This document shows, piece by piece, positions 22,633-58,092 of a stretch of 64,000 bases of DNA. Source of the stretch: Escherichia coli (GTDB taxonomy: Bacteria > Pseudomonadota > Gammaproteobacteria > Enterobacterales > Enterobacteriaceae); assembly GCF_013122565.1 (NCBI RefSeq), contig NZ_CP053258.1; one strand, written 5' to 3'. The stretch's first letter is position 1. Each line of letters opens with the position of its first letter. The notes below the pieces were generated by a model. That model was not told the origin of the DNA and did not search any database. It saw only the letters and a program-made list of their open reading frames with translations. Both the position numbers and the translations under genes were made by a program.

Positions 22633-25072
22633 CAATGTAAAATTACAGGTATTGCTCAGGGCTGTTGACCAGGCATCCCGCCCGTTTAAATCCATCCGCA
22701 CAGCGAGCAAATCGCTGTCGGGGGATATCCGGGAAACACAAAAATCACTGCGCGAGCTGAACGGTCAGGCATCCCGTATTGAGGGATTTCGCAAGACAAG
22801 TGCACAGCTCGCCGTGACTGGTCATGCACTTGAAAAGGCTCGGCAGGAAGCCGAAGCCCTTGCCACACAGTTTAAAAACACCGAACGTCCGACCCGTGCT
22901 CAGGCGAAAGTGCTGGAATCCGCAAAGCGTGCGGCGGAGGACTTACAGGCGAAATATAACCGCCTGACGGATTCCGTTAAACGCCAGCAGCGGGAACTGG
23001 CCGCTGTGGGAATTAATACCCGCAATCTTGCACATGATGAGCAGGGACTGAAAAACCGTATCGGTGAAACCACTGCACAGCTTAACCGTCAGCGTGATGC
23101 GCTGGCGCGTGTCAGTGCGCAACAGGCAAAACTTAACGCAGTAAAACAGCGTTATCAGGCCGGAAAGGAACTGGCCGGAAATATGGCCTCAGTGGGCGCT
23201 GCCGGTGTGGGGATTGCGGCGGCGGGAACGATGGCCGGAGTTAAGCTGCTGATGCCCGGTTATGAGTTTGCGCAGAAAAACTCAGAATTACAGGCTGTGC
23301 TCGGAGTGGCAAAAGACTCCACCGAAATGGCCGCACTACGCAAACAGGCGCGTCAGCTTGGCGACAATACCGCCGCCTCGGCAGATGATGCAGCCGGTGC
23401 GCAGATTATTATTGCGAAAGCCGGTGGGGATGTTGATGCCATTCAGGCGGCAACGCCGGTCACGCTGAATATGGCGCTGGCGAACCGTCGCACGATGGAA
23501 GAAAACGCTGCCCTGCTGATGGGGATGAAATCCGCCTTTCAGCTTTCAAACGATAAGGTCGCTCATATCGGGGATGTTCTCTCCATGACGATGAACAAAA
23601 CCGCCGCCGATTTTGACGGTATGAGCGATGCGCTGACCTATGCTGCACCTGTGGCAAAAAATGCCGGTGTCAGCATTGAAGAAACCGCCGCAATGGTCGG
23701 AGCGCTGCATGATGCAAAAATCACAGGCTCAATGGCGGGGACGGGAAGCCGTGCCGTGTTAAGTCGCCTGCAGGCACCGACGGGAAAAGCATGGGATGCA
23801 CTCAAAGAGCTTGGCGTGAAAACCTCAGACAGTAAGGGAAACACCCGACCAGTATTTACCATTCTGAAAGAAATGCAGGCCAGTTTTGAGAAAAACCGGC
23901 TCGGTACTGCCCAGCAGGCTGAATACATGAAAACCATTTTCGGGGAGGAAGCCAGCTCAGCCGCCGCCGTGCTGATGACTGCCGCCTCAACCGGAAAGCT
24001 GGACAAACTGACCGCTGCGTTTAAAGCCTCAGACGGGAAGACCGCCGAGCTGGTAAATATCATGCAGGACAACCTCGGCGGTGACTTTAAGGAGTTTCAG
24101 TCCGCTTATGAGGCGGTGGGGACTGACCTGTTTGACCAGCAGGAAGGCGCACTGCGTAAGCTCACGCAGACGGCCACAAAGTATGTGTTAAAACTCGACG
24201 GCTGGATCCAGAAAAACAAATCACTGGCGTCAACCATCGGCATCATTGTCGGTGGTGCACTGGCACTGACTGGTGTCATCGGTGCCATTGGCCTCGTAGC
24301 CTGGCCGGTTATCACCGGCATCAATGCCATCATCGCGGCAGCAGGCGCAATGGGGGCAATCTTCACGACGGTTGGCAGTGCTGTTATGACGGCCATCGGG
24401 GCGATTAGCTGGCCGGTTGTGGCCGTGGTGGCCGCAATTGTCGCCGGGGCGTTGCTTATCCGTAAATACTGGGAGCCTGTCAGCGCATTCTTTGGCGGTG
24501 TGGTTGAAGGGCTGAAAGCGGCATTTGCGCCAGTGGGGGAACTGTTCACGCCACTTAAGCCGGTGTTTGACTGGCTGGGTGAAAAGTTACAGGCCGCGTG
24601 GCAGTGGTTTAAAAACCTGATTGCCCCGGTTAAAGCCACTCAGGACACCCTGAACAGTTGCCGTGACACGGGGGTCATGTTCGGGCAGGCACTGGCTGAC
24701 GCGCTGATGCTGCCGCTTAATGCGTTCAACAAACTGCGCAGCGGAATTGACTGGGTACTGGAAAAACTCGGTGTTATCAACAAAGAGTCAGACACACTTG
24801 ACCAGACCGCCGCCAGAACTCAAGCCGCCACGTATGGCAGCGGTGGTTATATTCCGGCGACCAGCTCTTATGCAGGCTATCAGGCTTATCAGCCGGTCAC
24901 GGCACCGGCTGGCCGCTCTTATGTGGACCAGAGTAAAAACGAATATCACATCAGCCTGACGGGTGGTACTGCGCCGGGGACACAGCTTGACCGCCAGTTA
25001 CAGGATGCGCTCGAAAAATACGAGCGGGATAAACGTGCGCGCGCCCGTGCCAGCATGATGCATGACGGTTAA
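22625..25072 (+). CDS. T: Tail tape measure protein
   Basis: 815 aa, same as P2 gpT; alanine/glycine-rich with hydrophobic central segments. Confidence 0.9.
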   Translation: MSNNVKLQVLLRAVDQASRPFKSIRTASKSLSGDIRETQKSLRELNGQASRIEGFRKTSAQLAVTGHALEKARQEAEALATQFKNTERPTRAQAKVLESAKRAAEDLQAKYNRLTDSVKRQQRELAAVGINTRNLAHDEQGLKNRIGETTAQLNRQRDALARVSAQQAKLNAVKQRYQAGKELAGNMASVGAAGVGIAAAGTMAGVKLLMPGYEFAQKNSELQAVLGVAKDSTEMAALRKQARQLGDNTAASADDAAGAQIIIAKAGGDVDAIQAATPVTLNMALANRRTMEENAALLMGMKSAFQLSNDKVAHIGDVLSMTMNKTAADFDGMSDALTYAAPVAKNAGVSIEETAAMVGALHDAKITGSMAGTGSRAVLSRLQAPTGKAWDALKELGVKTSDSKGNTRPVFTILKEMQASFEKNRLGTAQQAEYMKTIFGEEASSAAAVLMTAASTGKLDKLTAAFKASDGKTAELVNIMQDNLGGDFKEFQSAYEAVGTDLFDQQEGALRKLTQTATKYVLKLDGWIQKNKSLASTIGIIVGGALALTGVIGAIGLVAWPVITGINAIIAAAGAMGAIFTTVGSAVMTAIGAISWPVVAVVAAIVAGALLIRKYWEPVSAFFGGVVEGLKAAFAPVGELFTPLKPVFDWLGEKLQAAWQWFKNLIAPVKATQDTLNSCRDTGVMFGQALADALMLPLNAFNKLRSGIDWVLEKLGVINKESDTLDQTAARTQAATYGSGGYIPATSSYAGYQAYQPVTAPAGRSYVDQSKNEYHISLTGGTAPGTQLDRQLQDALEKYERDKRARARASMMHDG

Positions 25073-26811: not shown

Positions 26812-27030
26812 ATGTTTCATTGTCCTTTATGCCAGCATGCCGCACATGCGCGTACAAGTCGCTATATCACTGACACGACAAAAGAGCGTTATCACCAGTG
26901 TCAGAACGTGAATTGCAGCGCCACGTTCATCACTTATGAGTCTGTACAGCGATACATTGTGAAGCCGGGAGAAGTCCACGCCGTGAGGCCGCACCCGTTG
27001 CCGTCAGGGCAGCAAATTATGTGGATGTAA
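26812..27030 (+). CDS. ogr: Ogr zinc-finger late-gene transcriptional activator
   Basis: Internal start MFHCPLCQHAAHAR gives 72 aa as for P2 Ogr; CxxC...CxxxxC zinc-finger cysteines; last phage gene before att. Confidence 0.85.
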   Translation: MFHCPLCQHAAHARTSRYITDTTKERYHQCQNVNCSATFITYESVQRYIVKPGEVHAVRPHPLPSGQQIMWM

Positions 27031-27043
27031 TTACAAACAGAAA

Positions 27044-27068
27044 GCCCCTCAGTCGAGGGGCTTTTTTT
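27044..27068 (+). terminator. Rho-independent terminator after ogr
   Basis: GCCCCTC-AGTC-GAGGGGC hairpin followed by a run of seven T, 14 nt past the ogr stop. Confidence 0.7.
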
Positions 27069-27132
27069 GTCGATGTGGTCAATGTGTGGACGTGACCAGA
27101 AATAAATCCTTTTATTTCAATTTGTTGTACGT

Positions 27133-27159
27133 AAAAAATAAGCCCGTGTAAGGGAGATT
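27133..27159. other. Prophage attR core (P2 att core)
   Basis: AAAAAATAAGCCCGTGTAAGGGAGATT, the 27-nt P2 attP/attB core from memory; it coincides with the 3' end of cyaR and marks the prophage/host junction. Confidence 0.55.
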
Positions 27160-27219
27160 ACACAGGCTAAGGAGGTGGTTCCTGGTACAGCTAGCATTTT
27201 ATGGGTTATGTTTTTCAGC
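27133..27219 (-). ncRNA. cyaR: CyaR (RyeE) Hfq-dependent sRNA
   Basis: Minus-strand sequence GCUGAAAAACAUAACCCAUAAAAUGCUAGCUGUACCAGGAACCACCUCCUUAGCCUGUGUAAUCUCCCUUACACGGGCUUAUUUUUU (87 nt) matches CyaR from memory, including the terminator hairpin; position between yegQ and ogr as in K-12. Confidence 0.75.
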
Positions 27220-27253
27220 GAAACGGATGATAACCTTAATAAATGCAGCTGTA

Positions 27254-27269
27254 TGTGATCGGTTTCTAA
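27254..27269. promoter_or_regulatory. Candidate CRP site of the cyaR promoter (class II position)
   Basis: TGTGA-N6-TCTAA centred about 42 bp upstream of the inferred CyaR 5' end; CyaR is known to be CRP-cAMP activated; the second half-site is weak. Confidence 0.35.
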
Positions 27270-27303
27270 GAATTTTCCATCCGGGAAAAATAATCGAAAT
27301 TAA

Positions 27304-28665
27304 TCACTTACCGTGGGGGTTACGCGTGGTTTCCCCGGAGAAATTACGCATCAGCAGCGCGTAATTCAGTTCAAGATCCTGCGGTACCGGGATCCAAACA
27401 GTATAACCATCGCCAGGTGCGACCGGCATAGCTTCACCTTTGGCGTTTTCCATGTGCTCAAGGGTAAAGTTAATGTTGCCTTGCGGCGTCATCAGCTCGA
27501 GGCTGTCGCCAACGGAGAATTTATTTTTCACCGCTACCGCCGCGAGGTCCCCCTTGCGCTCACCGGTAAACTCACCAACAAACTGCTGGCGGTCAGAAAC
27601 CGAATAACCGTATTCGTAGTTCTGATAATCGTCGTGAGTATGACGACGCAGGAAACCTTCGGTATAGCCACGATGCGCCAGACCTTCCAGAGTTTCCAGC
27701 AGGCTGGTATCGAACGGTTTGCCCGCAGCGGCATCATCGATAGCTTTGCGATAAACCTGCGCGGTGCGTGCGCAATAGTAGAAAGATTTGGTACGGCCTT
27801 CGATTTTCAGCGAATGCACGCCCATTTTGGTCAGGCGTTCAACATGGGCGATGGCGCGCAGATCTTTCGAGTTCATGATGTAAGTGCCGTGCTCATCTTC
27901 AAACGCGGTCATATACTCGCCCGGACGCTGGGCTTCTTCGATCATAAACACTTTGTCGGTTGGCGCGCCGATACCCAGCGTCGGCTCAACATTTTGCACC
28001 GGAATCGGCTCGTACTTGTGTACGATGTTGCCAACGTCATCTTCTTTCCCTTCCTGGACGTTGTACTCCCAGCGGCAGGCGTTGGTGCAGGTACCCTGGT
28101 TCGGGTCGCGCTTGTTGATATAGCCAGAGAGCAGGCAGCGACCGGAGTAGGCCATGCACAGTGCGCCGTGAACGAAGATCTCGATCTCCATATCCGGCAC
28201 CTGATTGCGGATCTCTTCAATCTCTTCCAGCGACAGCTCGCGAGAGAGGATCACGCGGGTCAGGCCCATTTGCTGCCAGAATTTCACCGTCGCCCAGTTT
28301 ACGGCGTTAGCCTGCACCGAGAGGTGGATCGGCATTTCAGGGAAGTGCTCACGCACCAGCATAATCAACCCCGGATCGGACATAATCAGCGCATCCGGCC
28401 CCATCTCCACCACCGGTTTCAGGTCACGGATAAAGGTTTTCAGCTTGGCGTTGTGCGGGGCAATGTTGACCACGACATAAAACTTTTTCCCCAGCGCGTG
28501 GGCTTCATTGATGCCGAGCTGAAGATTTTCGTGGTTGAATTCGTTGTTGCGCACACGCAGGGAGTAACGCGGCTGGCCCGCATAAACAGCATCTGCGCCA
28601 TAAGCGAAAGCGTAACGCATATTTTTCAGCGTTCCCGCCGGGGAAAGGAGTTCCGGTTTAAACAT
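27304..28665 (-). CDS. yegQ: U32-family peptidase-like protein YegQ
   Basis: 453 aa, same length as K-12 YegQ; conserved position next to cyaR. Confidence 0.9.
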   Translation of the reverse strand: MFKPELLSPAGTLKNMRYAFAYGADAVYAGQPRYSLRVRNNEFNHENLQLGINEAHALGKKFYVVVNIAPHNAKLKTFIRDLKPVVEMGPDALIMSDPGLIMLVREHFPEMPIHLSVQANAVNWATVKFWQQMGLTRVILSRELSLEEIEEIRNQVPDMEIEIFVHGALCMAYSGRCLLSGYINKRDPNQGTCTNACRWEYNVQEGKEDDVGNIVHKYEPIPVQNVEPTLGIGAPTDKVFMIEEAQRPGEYMTAFEDEHGTYIMNSKDLRAIAHVERLTKMGVHSLKIEGRTKSFYYCARTAQVYRKAIDDAAAGKPFDTSLLETLEGLAHRGYTEGFLRRHTHDDYQNYEYGYSVSDRQQFVGEFTGERKGDLAAVAVKNKFSVGDSLELMTPQGNINFTLEHMENAKGEAMPVAPGDGYTVWIPVPQDLELNYALLMRNFSGETTRNPHGK

Positions 28666-28767: not shown

Positions 28768-29064
28768 TTAGCTCCAGTGTAAATGTCTGGTGGCGTCCTG
28801 GTTTTGGTTAAGGATACGAATGACGATAATTTCCCCTGGTGATTGCAGGAAATAAATTACGTGGCGTTCAAAAGGAAGAACAAAAATACCTTCGCCTAAT
28901 TCAGGTCTGGGCGTACCTATATTATTGTTACTCAGAATCTGGAGAACGTCTGAAAGATGTTCCACATATCTGTCGGCTTGTGGTTCGCCGAAATGGTGAT
29001 AACTGTAATACCAGATGCCTTCTAAATCCTCATTGGCTTTTGGCATGAGTTTAATAATACGCAC
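28768..29064 (-). CDS. ParE/RelE-family type II toxin
   Basis: 98 aa; pattern ...GEGIFVLPFERHVIYFLQSPGEIIVIRILNQNQD typical of ParE toxins; starts one base after the antitoxin stop. Confidence 0.7.
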   Translation of the reverse strand: MRIIKLMPKANEDLEGIWYYSYHHFGEPQADRYVEHLSDVLQILSNNNIGTPRPELGEGIFVLPFERHVIYFLQSPGEIIVIRILNQNQDATRHLHWS

Positions 29065-29065
29065 A

Positions 29066-29317
29066 TTATTTCCTTATCCCTGCTTTCACCTTCCGTAAAA
29101 ACGCGTCCTTTTCCCACGGCTGAGCTTCACCACTACTCAACCCTTCTGCAAGCATGTCACGTAATGCTTGCAGGCGAGACTCTGCTTGCTTTTCTCGAAG
29201 TAAGCGCAGTGACTCACGGATCACTTCGCTTTGGGTGCGATAGTCGCCGGATTCAATTAAGGACTCGATAAATTCACGCAACTCATCGCCGAGATCAACC
29301 GTCATCGTTCTGGCCAT
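29066..29317 (-). CDS. ParD-like ribbon-helix-helix antitoxin
   Basis: Start chosen at MARTMTVDLGDELREFIESL (83 aa); small acidic RHH-like protein immediately upstream of the toxin; the track ORF extends to 29413. Confidence 0.65.
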   Translation of the reverse strand: MARTMTVDLGDELREFIESLIESGDYRTQSEVIRESLRLLREKQAESRLQALRDMLAEGLSSGEAQPWEKDAFLRKVKAGIRK

Positions 29318-29562
29318 TTTACGTCCGCCTGTAAGTAAAAATCTTACATCAGTGTATTTCATAAAACGCATAGCGTCACGAAAGTATTGGAAGATATTTT
29401 GGCATATGAACATGTTCAGGAGGGGATGGTAAACAAAGAAAGCACAACGAGTGCTCGTCAGTGCCCACTATTTTAATGGCGGAGGTTAATCTTAATTATC
29501 AATAACTAAGCGTTATTTTGATATAAAGCCGGACGCCAACAAACCCACGCCCGGCATCGTAA

Positions 29563-41284: not shown

Positions 41285-41425
41285 CAGCGGGACGCTGAAA
41301 CGGGAAAGCCCCTATAAGGAAAGGGTCATGATGAAGTGGATCATCATCGTGGTGCTCTTAGTCATAAGCTTCCCGGCTTACTAAGACTACCAGGGCGGGG
41401 GAAACCCCGCTCTACCCTCACTCCT
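41285..41425 (-). ncRNA. Sib antisense RNA (antitoxin) opposite ibs copy 1; ends approximate
   Basis: In K-12 each ibs ORF lies wholly inside a ~140-nt antisense Sib RNA (established knowledge); the extent here is estimated and no promoter or terminator was mapped. Confidence 0.3.
41328..41384 (+). CDS. Ibs-family type I toxin peptide (MMKWIIIVVLLVISFPAY)
   Basis: 18-codon hydrophobic ORF with GGAAAGGG RBS-like sequence upstream; Ibs family signature MMK...ILV...ISFPAY. Confidence 0.75.
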   Translation: MMKWIIIVVLLVISFPAY

Positions 41426-41611
41426 GAAATTATGCCTTCACGATAAGATTGTCAATCCGCAGGCTTTGTAGTCTGCGATCCTGCCAGCAAATATTCTTTG
41501 CGAGTCGTTACGCAATAATCACACTGGAAACTATTTTATCCGCAAGTCAGCGATAGACTGCATACAGGGCGAAAGGAGGTAAGCCGACGATTTCAGCGGG
41601 ACGCTGAAACG

Positions 41612-41752
41612 GGAAAGCCCCTCCCGAGGAAGGGGCCTTAAATAAGGAAAGGGTCATGATGAAGATACTCATCATCGTGGTGCTCTTAGTGATTAGCTAC
41701 CCAGCATACTAAGACTACCAGGGCGGGGGAAACCCCGCTCTACCCTCACTCC
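41612..41752 (-). ncRNA. Sib antisense RNA opposite ibs copy 2; ends approximate
   Basis: As for copy 1. Confidence 0.3.
41656..41712 (+). CDS. Ibs-family type I toxin peptide (MMKILIIVVLLVISYPAY)
   Basis: Second repeat copy, same frame and context as the first. Confidence 0.75.
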   Translation: MMKILIIVVLLVISYPAY

Positions 41753-41941
41753 TGAAATTATGCCTTCACGATAAGATTGTCAATCCGCAGGCTTTGTAGT
41801 CTGCGATCCTGCCAGCAAATATTCTTTGCGAGTCGTTACGCAATAATCACAGAGGAAACTATTTTGTTCACGCGTTAGCGATAGACTGCATTCAGGGCGA
41901 AAGGAGGTAAGCCGACGATTTCAGCGGGATGCTGAAACGGG

Positions 41942-42085
41942 AAACCCTCTCCCGGAGAAGAGGGCTTTTAATAAGGAAAGGGTTATGATGAAGCACGTCA
42001 TCATACTGGTGATACTCTTAGTGATTAGCTTCCAGGCTTACTAAGAACACCAGGGGGAGGGGGAAACCTCTCCCTAACCCTCACT
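41942..42085 (-). ncRNA. Sib antisense RNA opposite ibs copy 3; ends approximate
   Basis: As for copy 1. Confidence 0.3.
41985..42044 (+). CDS. Ibs-family type I toxin peptide (MMKHVIILVILLVISFQAY)
   Basis: Third repeat copy; 19 codons; closest of the three to K-12 IbsA from memory. Confidence 0.75.
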   Translation: MMKHVIILVILLVISFQAY

Positions 42086-42264
42086 CCTGAAATTATGTCA
42101 CTCCGCCCTTAGTGTCAATCGACGGCTCTCCGTTCTTGCGAGGCGAATAGCAAAATTTTCTGCGCCGCCGGGCCTAATTCTGAAAGTTTCTTCGTTTGCT
42201 CTTATTTCATTATTGCAATCGGTATGATACCGGACCTCGATAATTCTCTAAGAAAGGATTTCTT

Positions 42265-57613: not shown

Positions 57614-58080
57614 AGTAAGTACAAAACCTATTCGTTGTATGACAAATGTCACAATTCGATCATGGATAAATCGGGGCAAAAATGCAATGTTGCAGCACTA
57701 TTTATCTCATATTATTTGAGGGTAATAACCTCACATTATCCCTGAATTAAAAGTGGTAATAATAAACATTATTTAAGAAATATCGCATGTGGAGACGCAA
57801 TATTAAATATTGTCAACCTAAAGAAACTCCTAAAAACCATATTGAATGACACTTAATATAATTCTTAAAAATAGCCAATTGCCGAATTGTTACCTTGCCT
57901 GCTATTCCGTTAGCTGTAACACTTCCTCCTGCATTATTGGAGAGCCAATATTCAATTACCATAATGTCACCTTATATTCGGAAGTTAATTTCCGCAATAA
58001 CCCTTTCTCATCAACGATTGTATGCAGAGAGGGTTTGAAAAATTAAGCTAAATCAGTGTATTGGTAGCTAAAAAGCCAGG

Positions 58081-58092
58081 GGCGGTAGCGTG
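58081..58092 (+). promoter_or_regulatory. ops / JUMPstart element upstream of the colanic acid (wza) operon
   Basis: GGCGGTAGCGTG, the ops consensus, about 180 bp upstream of the wza start in the untranslated leader. Confidence 0.6.

Follow-up and report, generated by a model that had tools for sequence, protein, structure and literature searches.

The small RNA CyaR represses ompX, luxS, nadE and yqaE. Its primary descriptions are said to be those published by De Lay and Gottesman in 2009, by Johansen and colleagues in 2008 and by Papenfort and colleagues in 2008, the first two of which reportedly deal with the K-12 cyaR (ryeE) promoter and its CRP site. A well-described promoter of comparable architecture is galP1, a class II CRP-dependent promoter whose site is centred at -41.5. 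As for the phage found next to the gene here, locI is reportedly the preferred bacterial site of P2, as reported by Barreiro and Haggard-Ljungquist in 1992. Four papers describe cyaR as directly activated by cAMP-CRP in both E. coli and Salmonella (PMC3050693; PMC4098024; PMC5861431; PMC8916003), and CpxR and sigma-E are mentioned as further regulators of the gene (PMC5861431). In a Y. pseudotuberculosis crp mutant CyaR is undetectable (PMC11795201), and cAMP-dependent binding of CRP to the Yersinia cyaR upstream fragment was seen by EMSA (Nuss et al., 2015; PMC4376681), the S3 dataset of the same study listing TTAGA-AATAGA-TCACA as a CRP site (YPK_CRP_BS_5) that precedes the 5' end of Y. pseudotuberculosis CyaR by 33 nt.

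Here we analysed the cyaR locus in a 64,000-nucleotide stretch of E. coli DNA (hereafter the window), in which the gene abuts a P2-like prophage. We conclude, with a probability of roughly 0.93, that cAMP-CRP activates the cyaR promoter from the 16-bp element at 27254–27269, and that this promoter is of the class II CRP-dependent type. The CRP site and the promoter are both already known, as is P2 integration at this place; judged from the DNA, this lysogen would keep the standard catabolite-controlled CyaR circuit, and the value of the result would lie mainly in correct annotation. The features discussed are collected in the table below.

Table. Features of the cyaR locus in the window, ordered from the prophage towards the host gene yegQ.
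Feature	Position	Strand	Basis or remark
ogr, late-gene activator, last gene of the P2-like prophage	26812..27030	+	Pfam Ogr_Delta E = 2.4e-21; 97% identity to P2-like phages
cyaR (ryeE) small RNA gene, 87 nt	27133..27219	-	5' end 27219, 3' end 27133; K-12 b4438 mapping
P2 attachment core (attR copy), AAAAAATAAGCCCGTGTAAGGGAGATT, 27 bp	27133..27159	.	Equals CyaR nt 61-87
CyaR intrinsic terminator hairpin	27141..27168	-	Terminator scan and Rfam structure line; followed by T-run 27140-27133
-10 hexamer TATCAT	27227..27232	-	21 nt downstream of CRP core
-35-position hexamer CATACA	27250..27255	-	3/6 vs TTGACA; overlapped by proximal CRP half-site
CRP (cAMP receptor protein) site, 16-bp core	27254..27269	-	Distal half-site 27269-27265, proximal half-site 27258-27254
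yegQ/trhP, peptidase U32 family tRNA hydroxylation protein	27304..28665	-	Pfam Peptidase_U32 E = 5e-89; RefSeq annotation

Sequence and geometry of the cyaR promoter

The small RNA gene was recognised by the Rfam family RF00112 (CyaR/RyeE), which matched 27136–27221 on the minus strand over the whole model (1–85 of 85) and scored 100.7 bits where the gathering score is 47, and by the RefSeq K-12 cyaR gene (b4438, 87 nt), which aligned with 0 mismatches and whose 5' G falls at 27219. A three-way alignment showed no base difference between the window and K-12 MG1655 over the interval that begins with the stop codon of yegQ and takes in the whole CyaR terminator, so that the -10 element, the CRP box and the +1 of the K-12 promoter are all shared. 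The host gene upstream of the promoter is yegQ/trhP, and the intergenic region extends from 27220 to 27303.

On the plus strand the site reads TGTGATCGGTTTCTAA, which in the direction of cyaR is TTAGA-AACCGA-TCACA. The sequence-only reading of this DNA had described it as TGTGA-N6-TCTAA, and the letters of the window bear this out, the exact pattern occurring once in the 64 kb compared to 0.09 times expected from shuffles. It agrees with the CRP core consensus at 8 of 10 bases; the extended half on the proximal side, GATCACA, fits it perfectly, whilst the distal half, TTAGA, has three of the five consensus bases and to that extent counts against an activator site. The same is true of the frequency of the motif, as matches to TGTGA-N6-TCACA with two or fewer mismatches numbered 28 in the window and 26.4 ± 5.2 in shuffles, which is not a significant difference. 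Since the bare motif occurs at background rate, the weight of the argument rests on its position, on the identity with the K-12 promoter and on conservation across genera; from the density of matches in the window, the chance of a match with up to two mismatches falling within ±1 bp of a given point was estimated at ~1.3e-3. A second CRP-like match (two or fewer mismatches) at 27147–27162, TGTAAGGGAGATTACA, was rejected as a CRP site, being the inverted repeat of the CyaR terminator together with the att core.

In the cyaR orientation the promoter sequence is TTC TTAGA AACCGA TCACA TACAGCTGCATTTATTAAGGT TATCAT CCGTTTC G(+1). The CRP core is centred at 27261.5, i.e. at -42.5 relative to the annotated +1 (27219), and the earlier estimate of ~42 bp upstream of the inferred CyaR 5' end therefore agrees with the 42.5 bp measured from the 5' end annotated in K-12. 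Should transcription really start at the annotated 5' end, a centre at -42.5 rather than -41.5 would speak against a class II site. The 21 nt that separate TCACA from the -10 hexamer, however, are exactly those of a -41.5 site with its -10 at -12 to -7, so that the position measured from the -10 is equivalent to -41.5, and the site overlaps the -35 position. The hexamer found there is a poor -35, and a consensus scan of 27000–27340, which did detect the CyaR terminator, returned no stand-alone sigma-70 promoter in that interval, which fits dependence on an activator. There is no extended -10 (TGn), as GGT precedes TATCAT. The cyaR promoter is like galP1-type class II promoters in its -35 overlap, in its spacing between site and -10 and in its weak -35 with a need for an activator, whilst it differs from galP1 in lacking the extended -10. 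Overall, its geometry relative to both the start and the -10 supports the class II assignment already proposed in the sequence-only reading.

In the mechanism that we propose, in which the dependence on CRP and its binding are taken from the literature, a CRP dimer would bind TTAGA-AACCGA-TCACA under glucose-poor, high-cAMP conditions. Lying over the would-be -35 spot, it would replace the missing -35 contacts and recruit and activate RNA polymerase at TATCAT; because the promoter's own -35 is poor, the polymerase would need CRP in order to initiate there. Contacts of the AR2 and AR3 regions of CRP with the alpha-NTD and with sigma region 4 are those that the geometry would predict. Transcription would then start at G 27219 and give rise to the 87-nt Hfq-binding small RNA CyaR.

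With the Yersinia dataset as a guide, the published CRP footprint at cyaR probably corresponds to 27254–27269. A full-text literature search for the coordinates of the cyaR promoter or of its CRP site found none, and a full-text query with the site sequence itself had as its sole match an unrelated paper on rice. A CRP ChIP-exo supplement (PMC5957442) has no entry for cyaR, just an ambiguous line for yegQ. As a separate observation, Latif et al. (2018) give in their table S1 a plus-strand 'TSS' for the yegQ transcription unit at K-12 position 2165053 (U00096.2), roughly 27304 in the window, which by coordinate conversion is where the stop codon of yegQ ends and lies ~85 bp upstream of the +1 of cyaR.

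Conservation of the CRP box and the distal half-site

Of 5426 complete E. coli genomes, 5423 had a match to a 321-bp query taken around the site, and in 4881 of 5425 E. coli records the identity of the 66-bp promoter segment 27215–27280 was 99% or more. For comparison across genera, one genome per species was scanned with a conserved CyaR word, yielding 120 stretches amongst which two were false positives (from Rhodobacteraceae and Prevotellaceae); the real cyaR loci are counted as n = 119. At least 24 named genera of Enterobacterales are represented among the loci listed, including Photorhabdus, Yersinia, Serratia, Rahnella, Pectobacterium, Dickeya, Brenneria, Citrobacter and Enterobacter. 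The exact box TTAGA-N6-TCACA was present in 108 of the 119 loci, the remainder having CAAGA, TAAGA or TAAGG as the distal half, and a relaxed form, NNNG[AG]-N6-TCACA, in 117, across which AGAA and GATCACA were invariant. This relaxed form served as the anchor, with an estimated chance of occurrence of ~1% per sequence. The 112 unique promoters could be aligned without gaps, and several positions that the anchor leaves free were invariant in all of them: in the box A3, A6, G10 and A11, and in the -10 T38, A39, A42 and T43, the latter forming an invariant TAnnAT at a fixed 21-nt gap. In the same 112 sequences the 21-nt spacer and the upstream flank mostly carried less than 0.6 bits per position. 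The invariance of the box and of its distance to the -10 amid variable flanks shows both to be under strong purifying selection.

The Yersinia site falls in with this pattern. YPK_CRP_BS_5 shares with the window both half-sites, TTAGA and TCACA, and a class II-like position, with 33 nt between its proximal edge and the 5' end of the RNA, whereas its spacer, AATAGA, differs from the AACCGA of the window, and the remaining promoter and the 5' part of the small RNA have diverged.

The sequence-only reading had called one half-site degenerate. In so far as this half, promoter-distal in the direction of cyaR, departs from the consensus, the description holds, but TTAGA has not decayed and is near-invariant in Enterobacterales. 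In the minus-strand sequence TTAGAA at 27264–27269, T2, A3 and A6, which depart from the consensus, were conserved in 92–100% of the 112 unique orthologous promoters, on a par with the consensus half, and this would not be predicted by selection for 'a weak half-site' alone. It is conceivable, though improbable, that TTAGAA is specifically selected, either setting the cAMP threshold of CyaR induction or overlapping the site of a second factor, and that the box is a composite element. In its broader form this alternative holds that CRP binds but that TTAGAA is also read by a CRP/FNR-family regulator, by alpha-CTD or by a repressor, or else is fixed in order to set the affinity for CRP or the cAMP threshold. 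At one position of the half-site the consensus of CRP has G and that of FNR has T, and the distal half has the T; together with the conservation just described and with CpxR and sigma-E being named as other cyaR regulators (PMC5861431), this can be cited for the alternative. Against it, binding of a second factor here is not known, the distal half does not fit the CpxR consensus on inspection, a count in the FNR register gives just 7/10, and many CRP sites are asymmetric in having one weak half, so that we regard the composite reading as very improbable. FNR and CpxR themselves, considered as readers of the site, were set aside as unsupported, given the 7/10 register and the absence on inspection of a CpxR repeat.

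A further alternative is that the 16-mer resembles a CRP site by chance and that cyaR is driven by other elements, to which the background frequency of matches (28 against 26.4 expected) and the one weak half-site would lend themselves. The conservation makes this untenable, as the box is invariant over 24 genera at a fixed distance to the -10 with variable flanks; moreover, without the box there is no adequate -35, and the orthologous Yersinia fragment binds CRP. We consider the likelihood of a chance match to be negligible and retain the reading of a class II CRP activator site.

The prophage junction within the cyaR terminator

In P2-type phages the 3' end of a small RNA gene acts as the attachment site and is rebuilt on integration, in the way that tRNA genes are used by other phages. 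The P2 record AF063097 has an attP core annotated at 24356–24382, which is identical at 27 of 27 positions to 27133–27159 of the window, and in the alignment the homology to P2 stops at 27159 and the sequences diverge directly beyond. The att core makes up the final 27 nt of CyaR (nt 61–87), a segment that takes in the loop-proximal part, the terminator 3' arm and the U-tail. The junction therefore lies inside the terminator and hence within the gene, and the 3' arm and U-tail come from the phage copy.

The 3.2 kb to the left of cyaR are ~97% identical to P2-like phages (genes T, U, D and ogr), the match ending at 27159, and the prophage is thus a relative of P2 rather than P2 itself, its sequence running back to the start of the window. 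As in P2, ogr adjoins the junction; a terminator scan placed its terminator at 27041–27064, and strain RS571 has ogrK annotated at the equivalent place. Downstream of cyaR, where the window has this prophage, K-12 has a 0.6-kb remnant, the cryptic prophage PR-X (ogrK, yegZ), the annotated start of which is cyaR nt 70. A search of the window for a second att core, which would mark attL, turned up none; judging by the P2 map, on which attP is at 24.4 kb of 33.6 kb, attL should lie ~6 kb past the left end of the window.

In three other Escherichia loci the terminator 3' arm reads TTACGCAGGC, compared with TTACACGGGC in the window and K-12, a difference of two bases. The two changes between TTACGCAGGC and TTACACGGGC are of phage origin, and with both of them the stem is kept through G-U pairs.

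The CRP site is separated from the att core by ~94–95 bp and is on the host side. That it belongs to the host, as proposed in the sequence-only reading, follows from the end of phage homology at 27159. The same reading had put the site beside the prophage junction, which is accurate as to the side and, at that distance, as to the proximity, but the junction is not merely adjacent to cyaR, as it is located inside the cyaR terminator. Its proposal that the prophage leaves the regulation of the small RNA intact appears sound in the light of a promoter that is the same as in K-12 and in most E. coli whatever sits downstream of cyaR. In the course of integration the P2-like prophage would have recombined within the last 27 nt of cyaR and brought with it a near-identical copy of that segment, after which promoter, seed region and terminator would all stay functional. 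Because a P2-type phage rebuilds the 3' end of the small RNA, the host regulator would not be disrupted.

The alternative that the element is owned by the prophage or was changed by its insertion, such that CyaR regulation in the lysogen differs from that in non-lysogens, can draw on the replacement of the last 27 nt of cyaR by the phage copy and on a terminator 3' arm two bases off the Escherichia TTACGCAGGC allele, but it has next to no probability given that phage homology stops 94 bp short of the site, that the promoter is unchanged in loci with different sequence beyond the CyaR T-run (e.g. L105) and that the CyaR sequence is that of the functional K-12 allele.

Other elements in the neighbourhood

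On the far side of yegQ, between this gene and yegP, a ParE toxin/ParD antitoxin pair is encoded at 28768–29413 on the minus strand (Pfam E = 2e-13 and 1e-18, respectively), which is present in strain RS571 and absent from K-12. Three tandem Sib antitoxin RNAs (Rfam RF00113, 141–150 bits each) were found at 41313–42118 on the minus strand, ~14 kb from cyaR. On the plus strand, 58054–58092 matched the JUMPstart family of Rfam (RF01707) with 57 bits, and this element presumably precedes a polysaccharide operon as its leader, for instance that for colanic acid.
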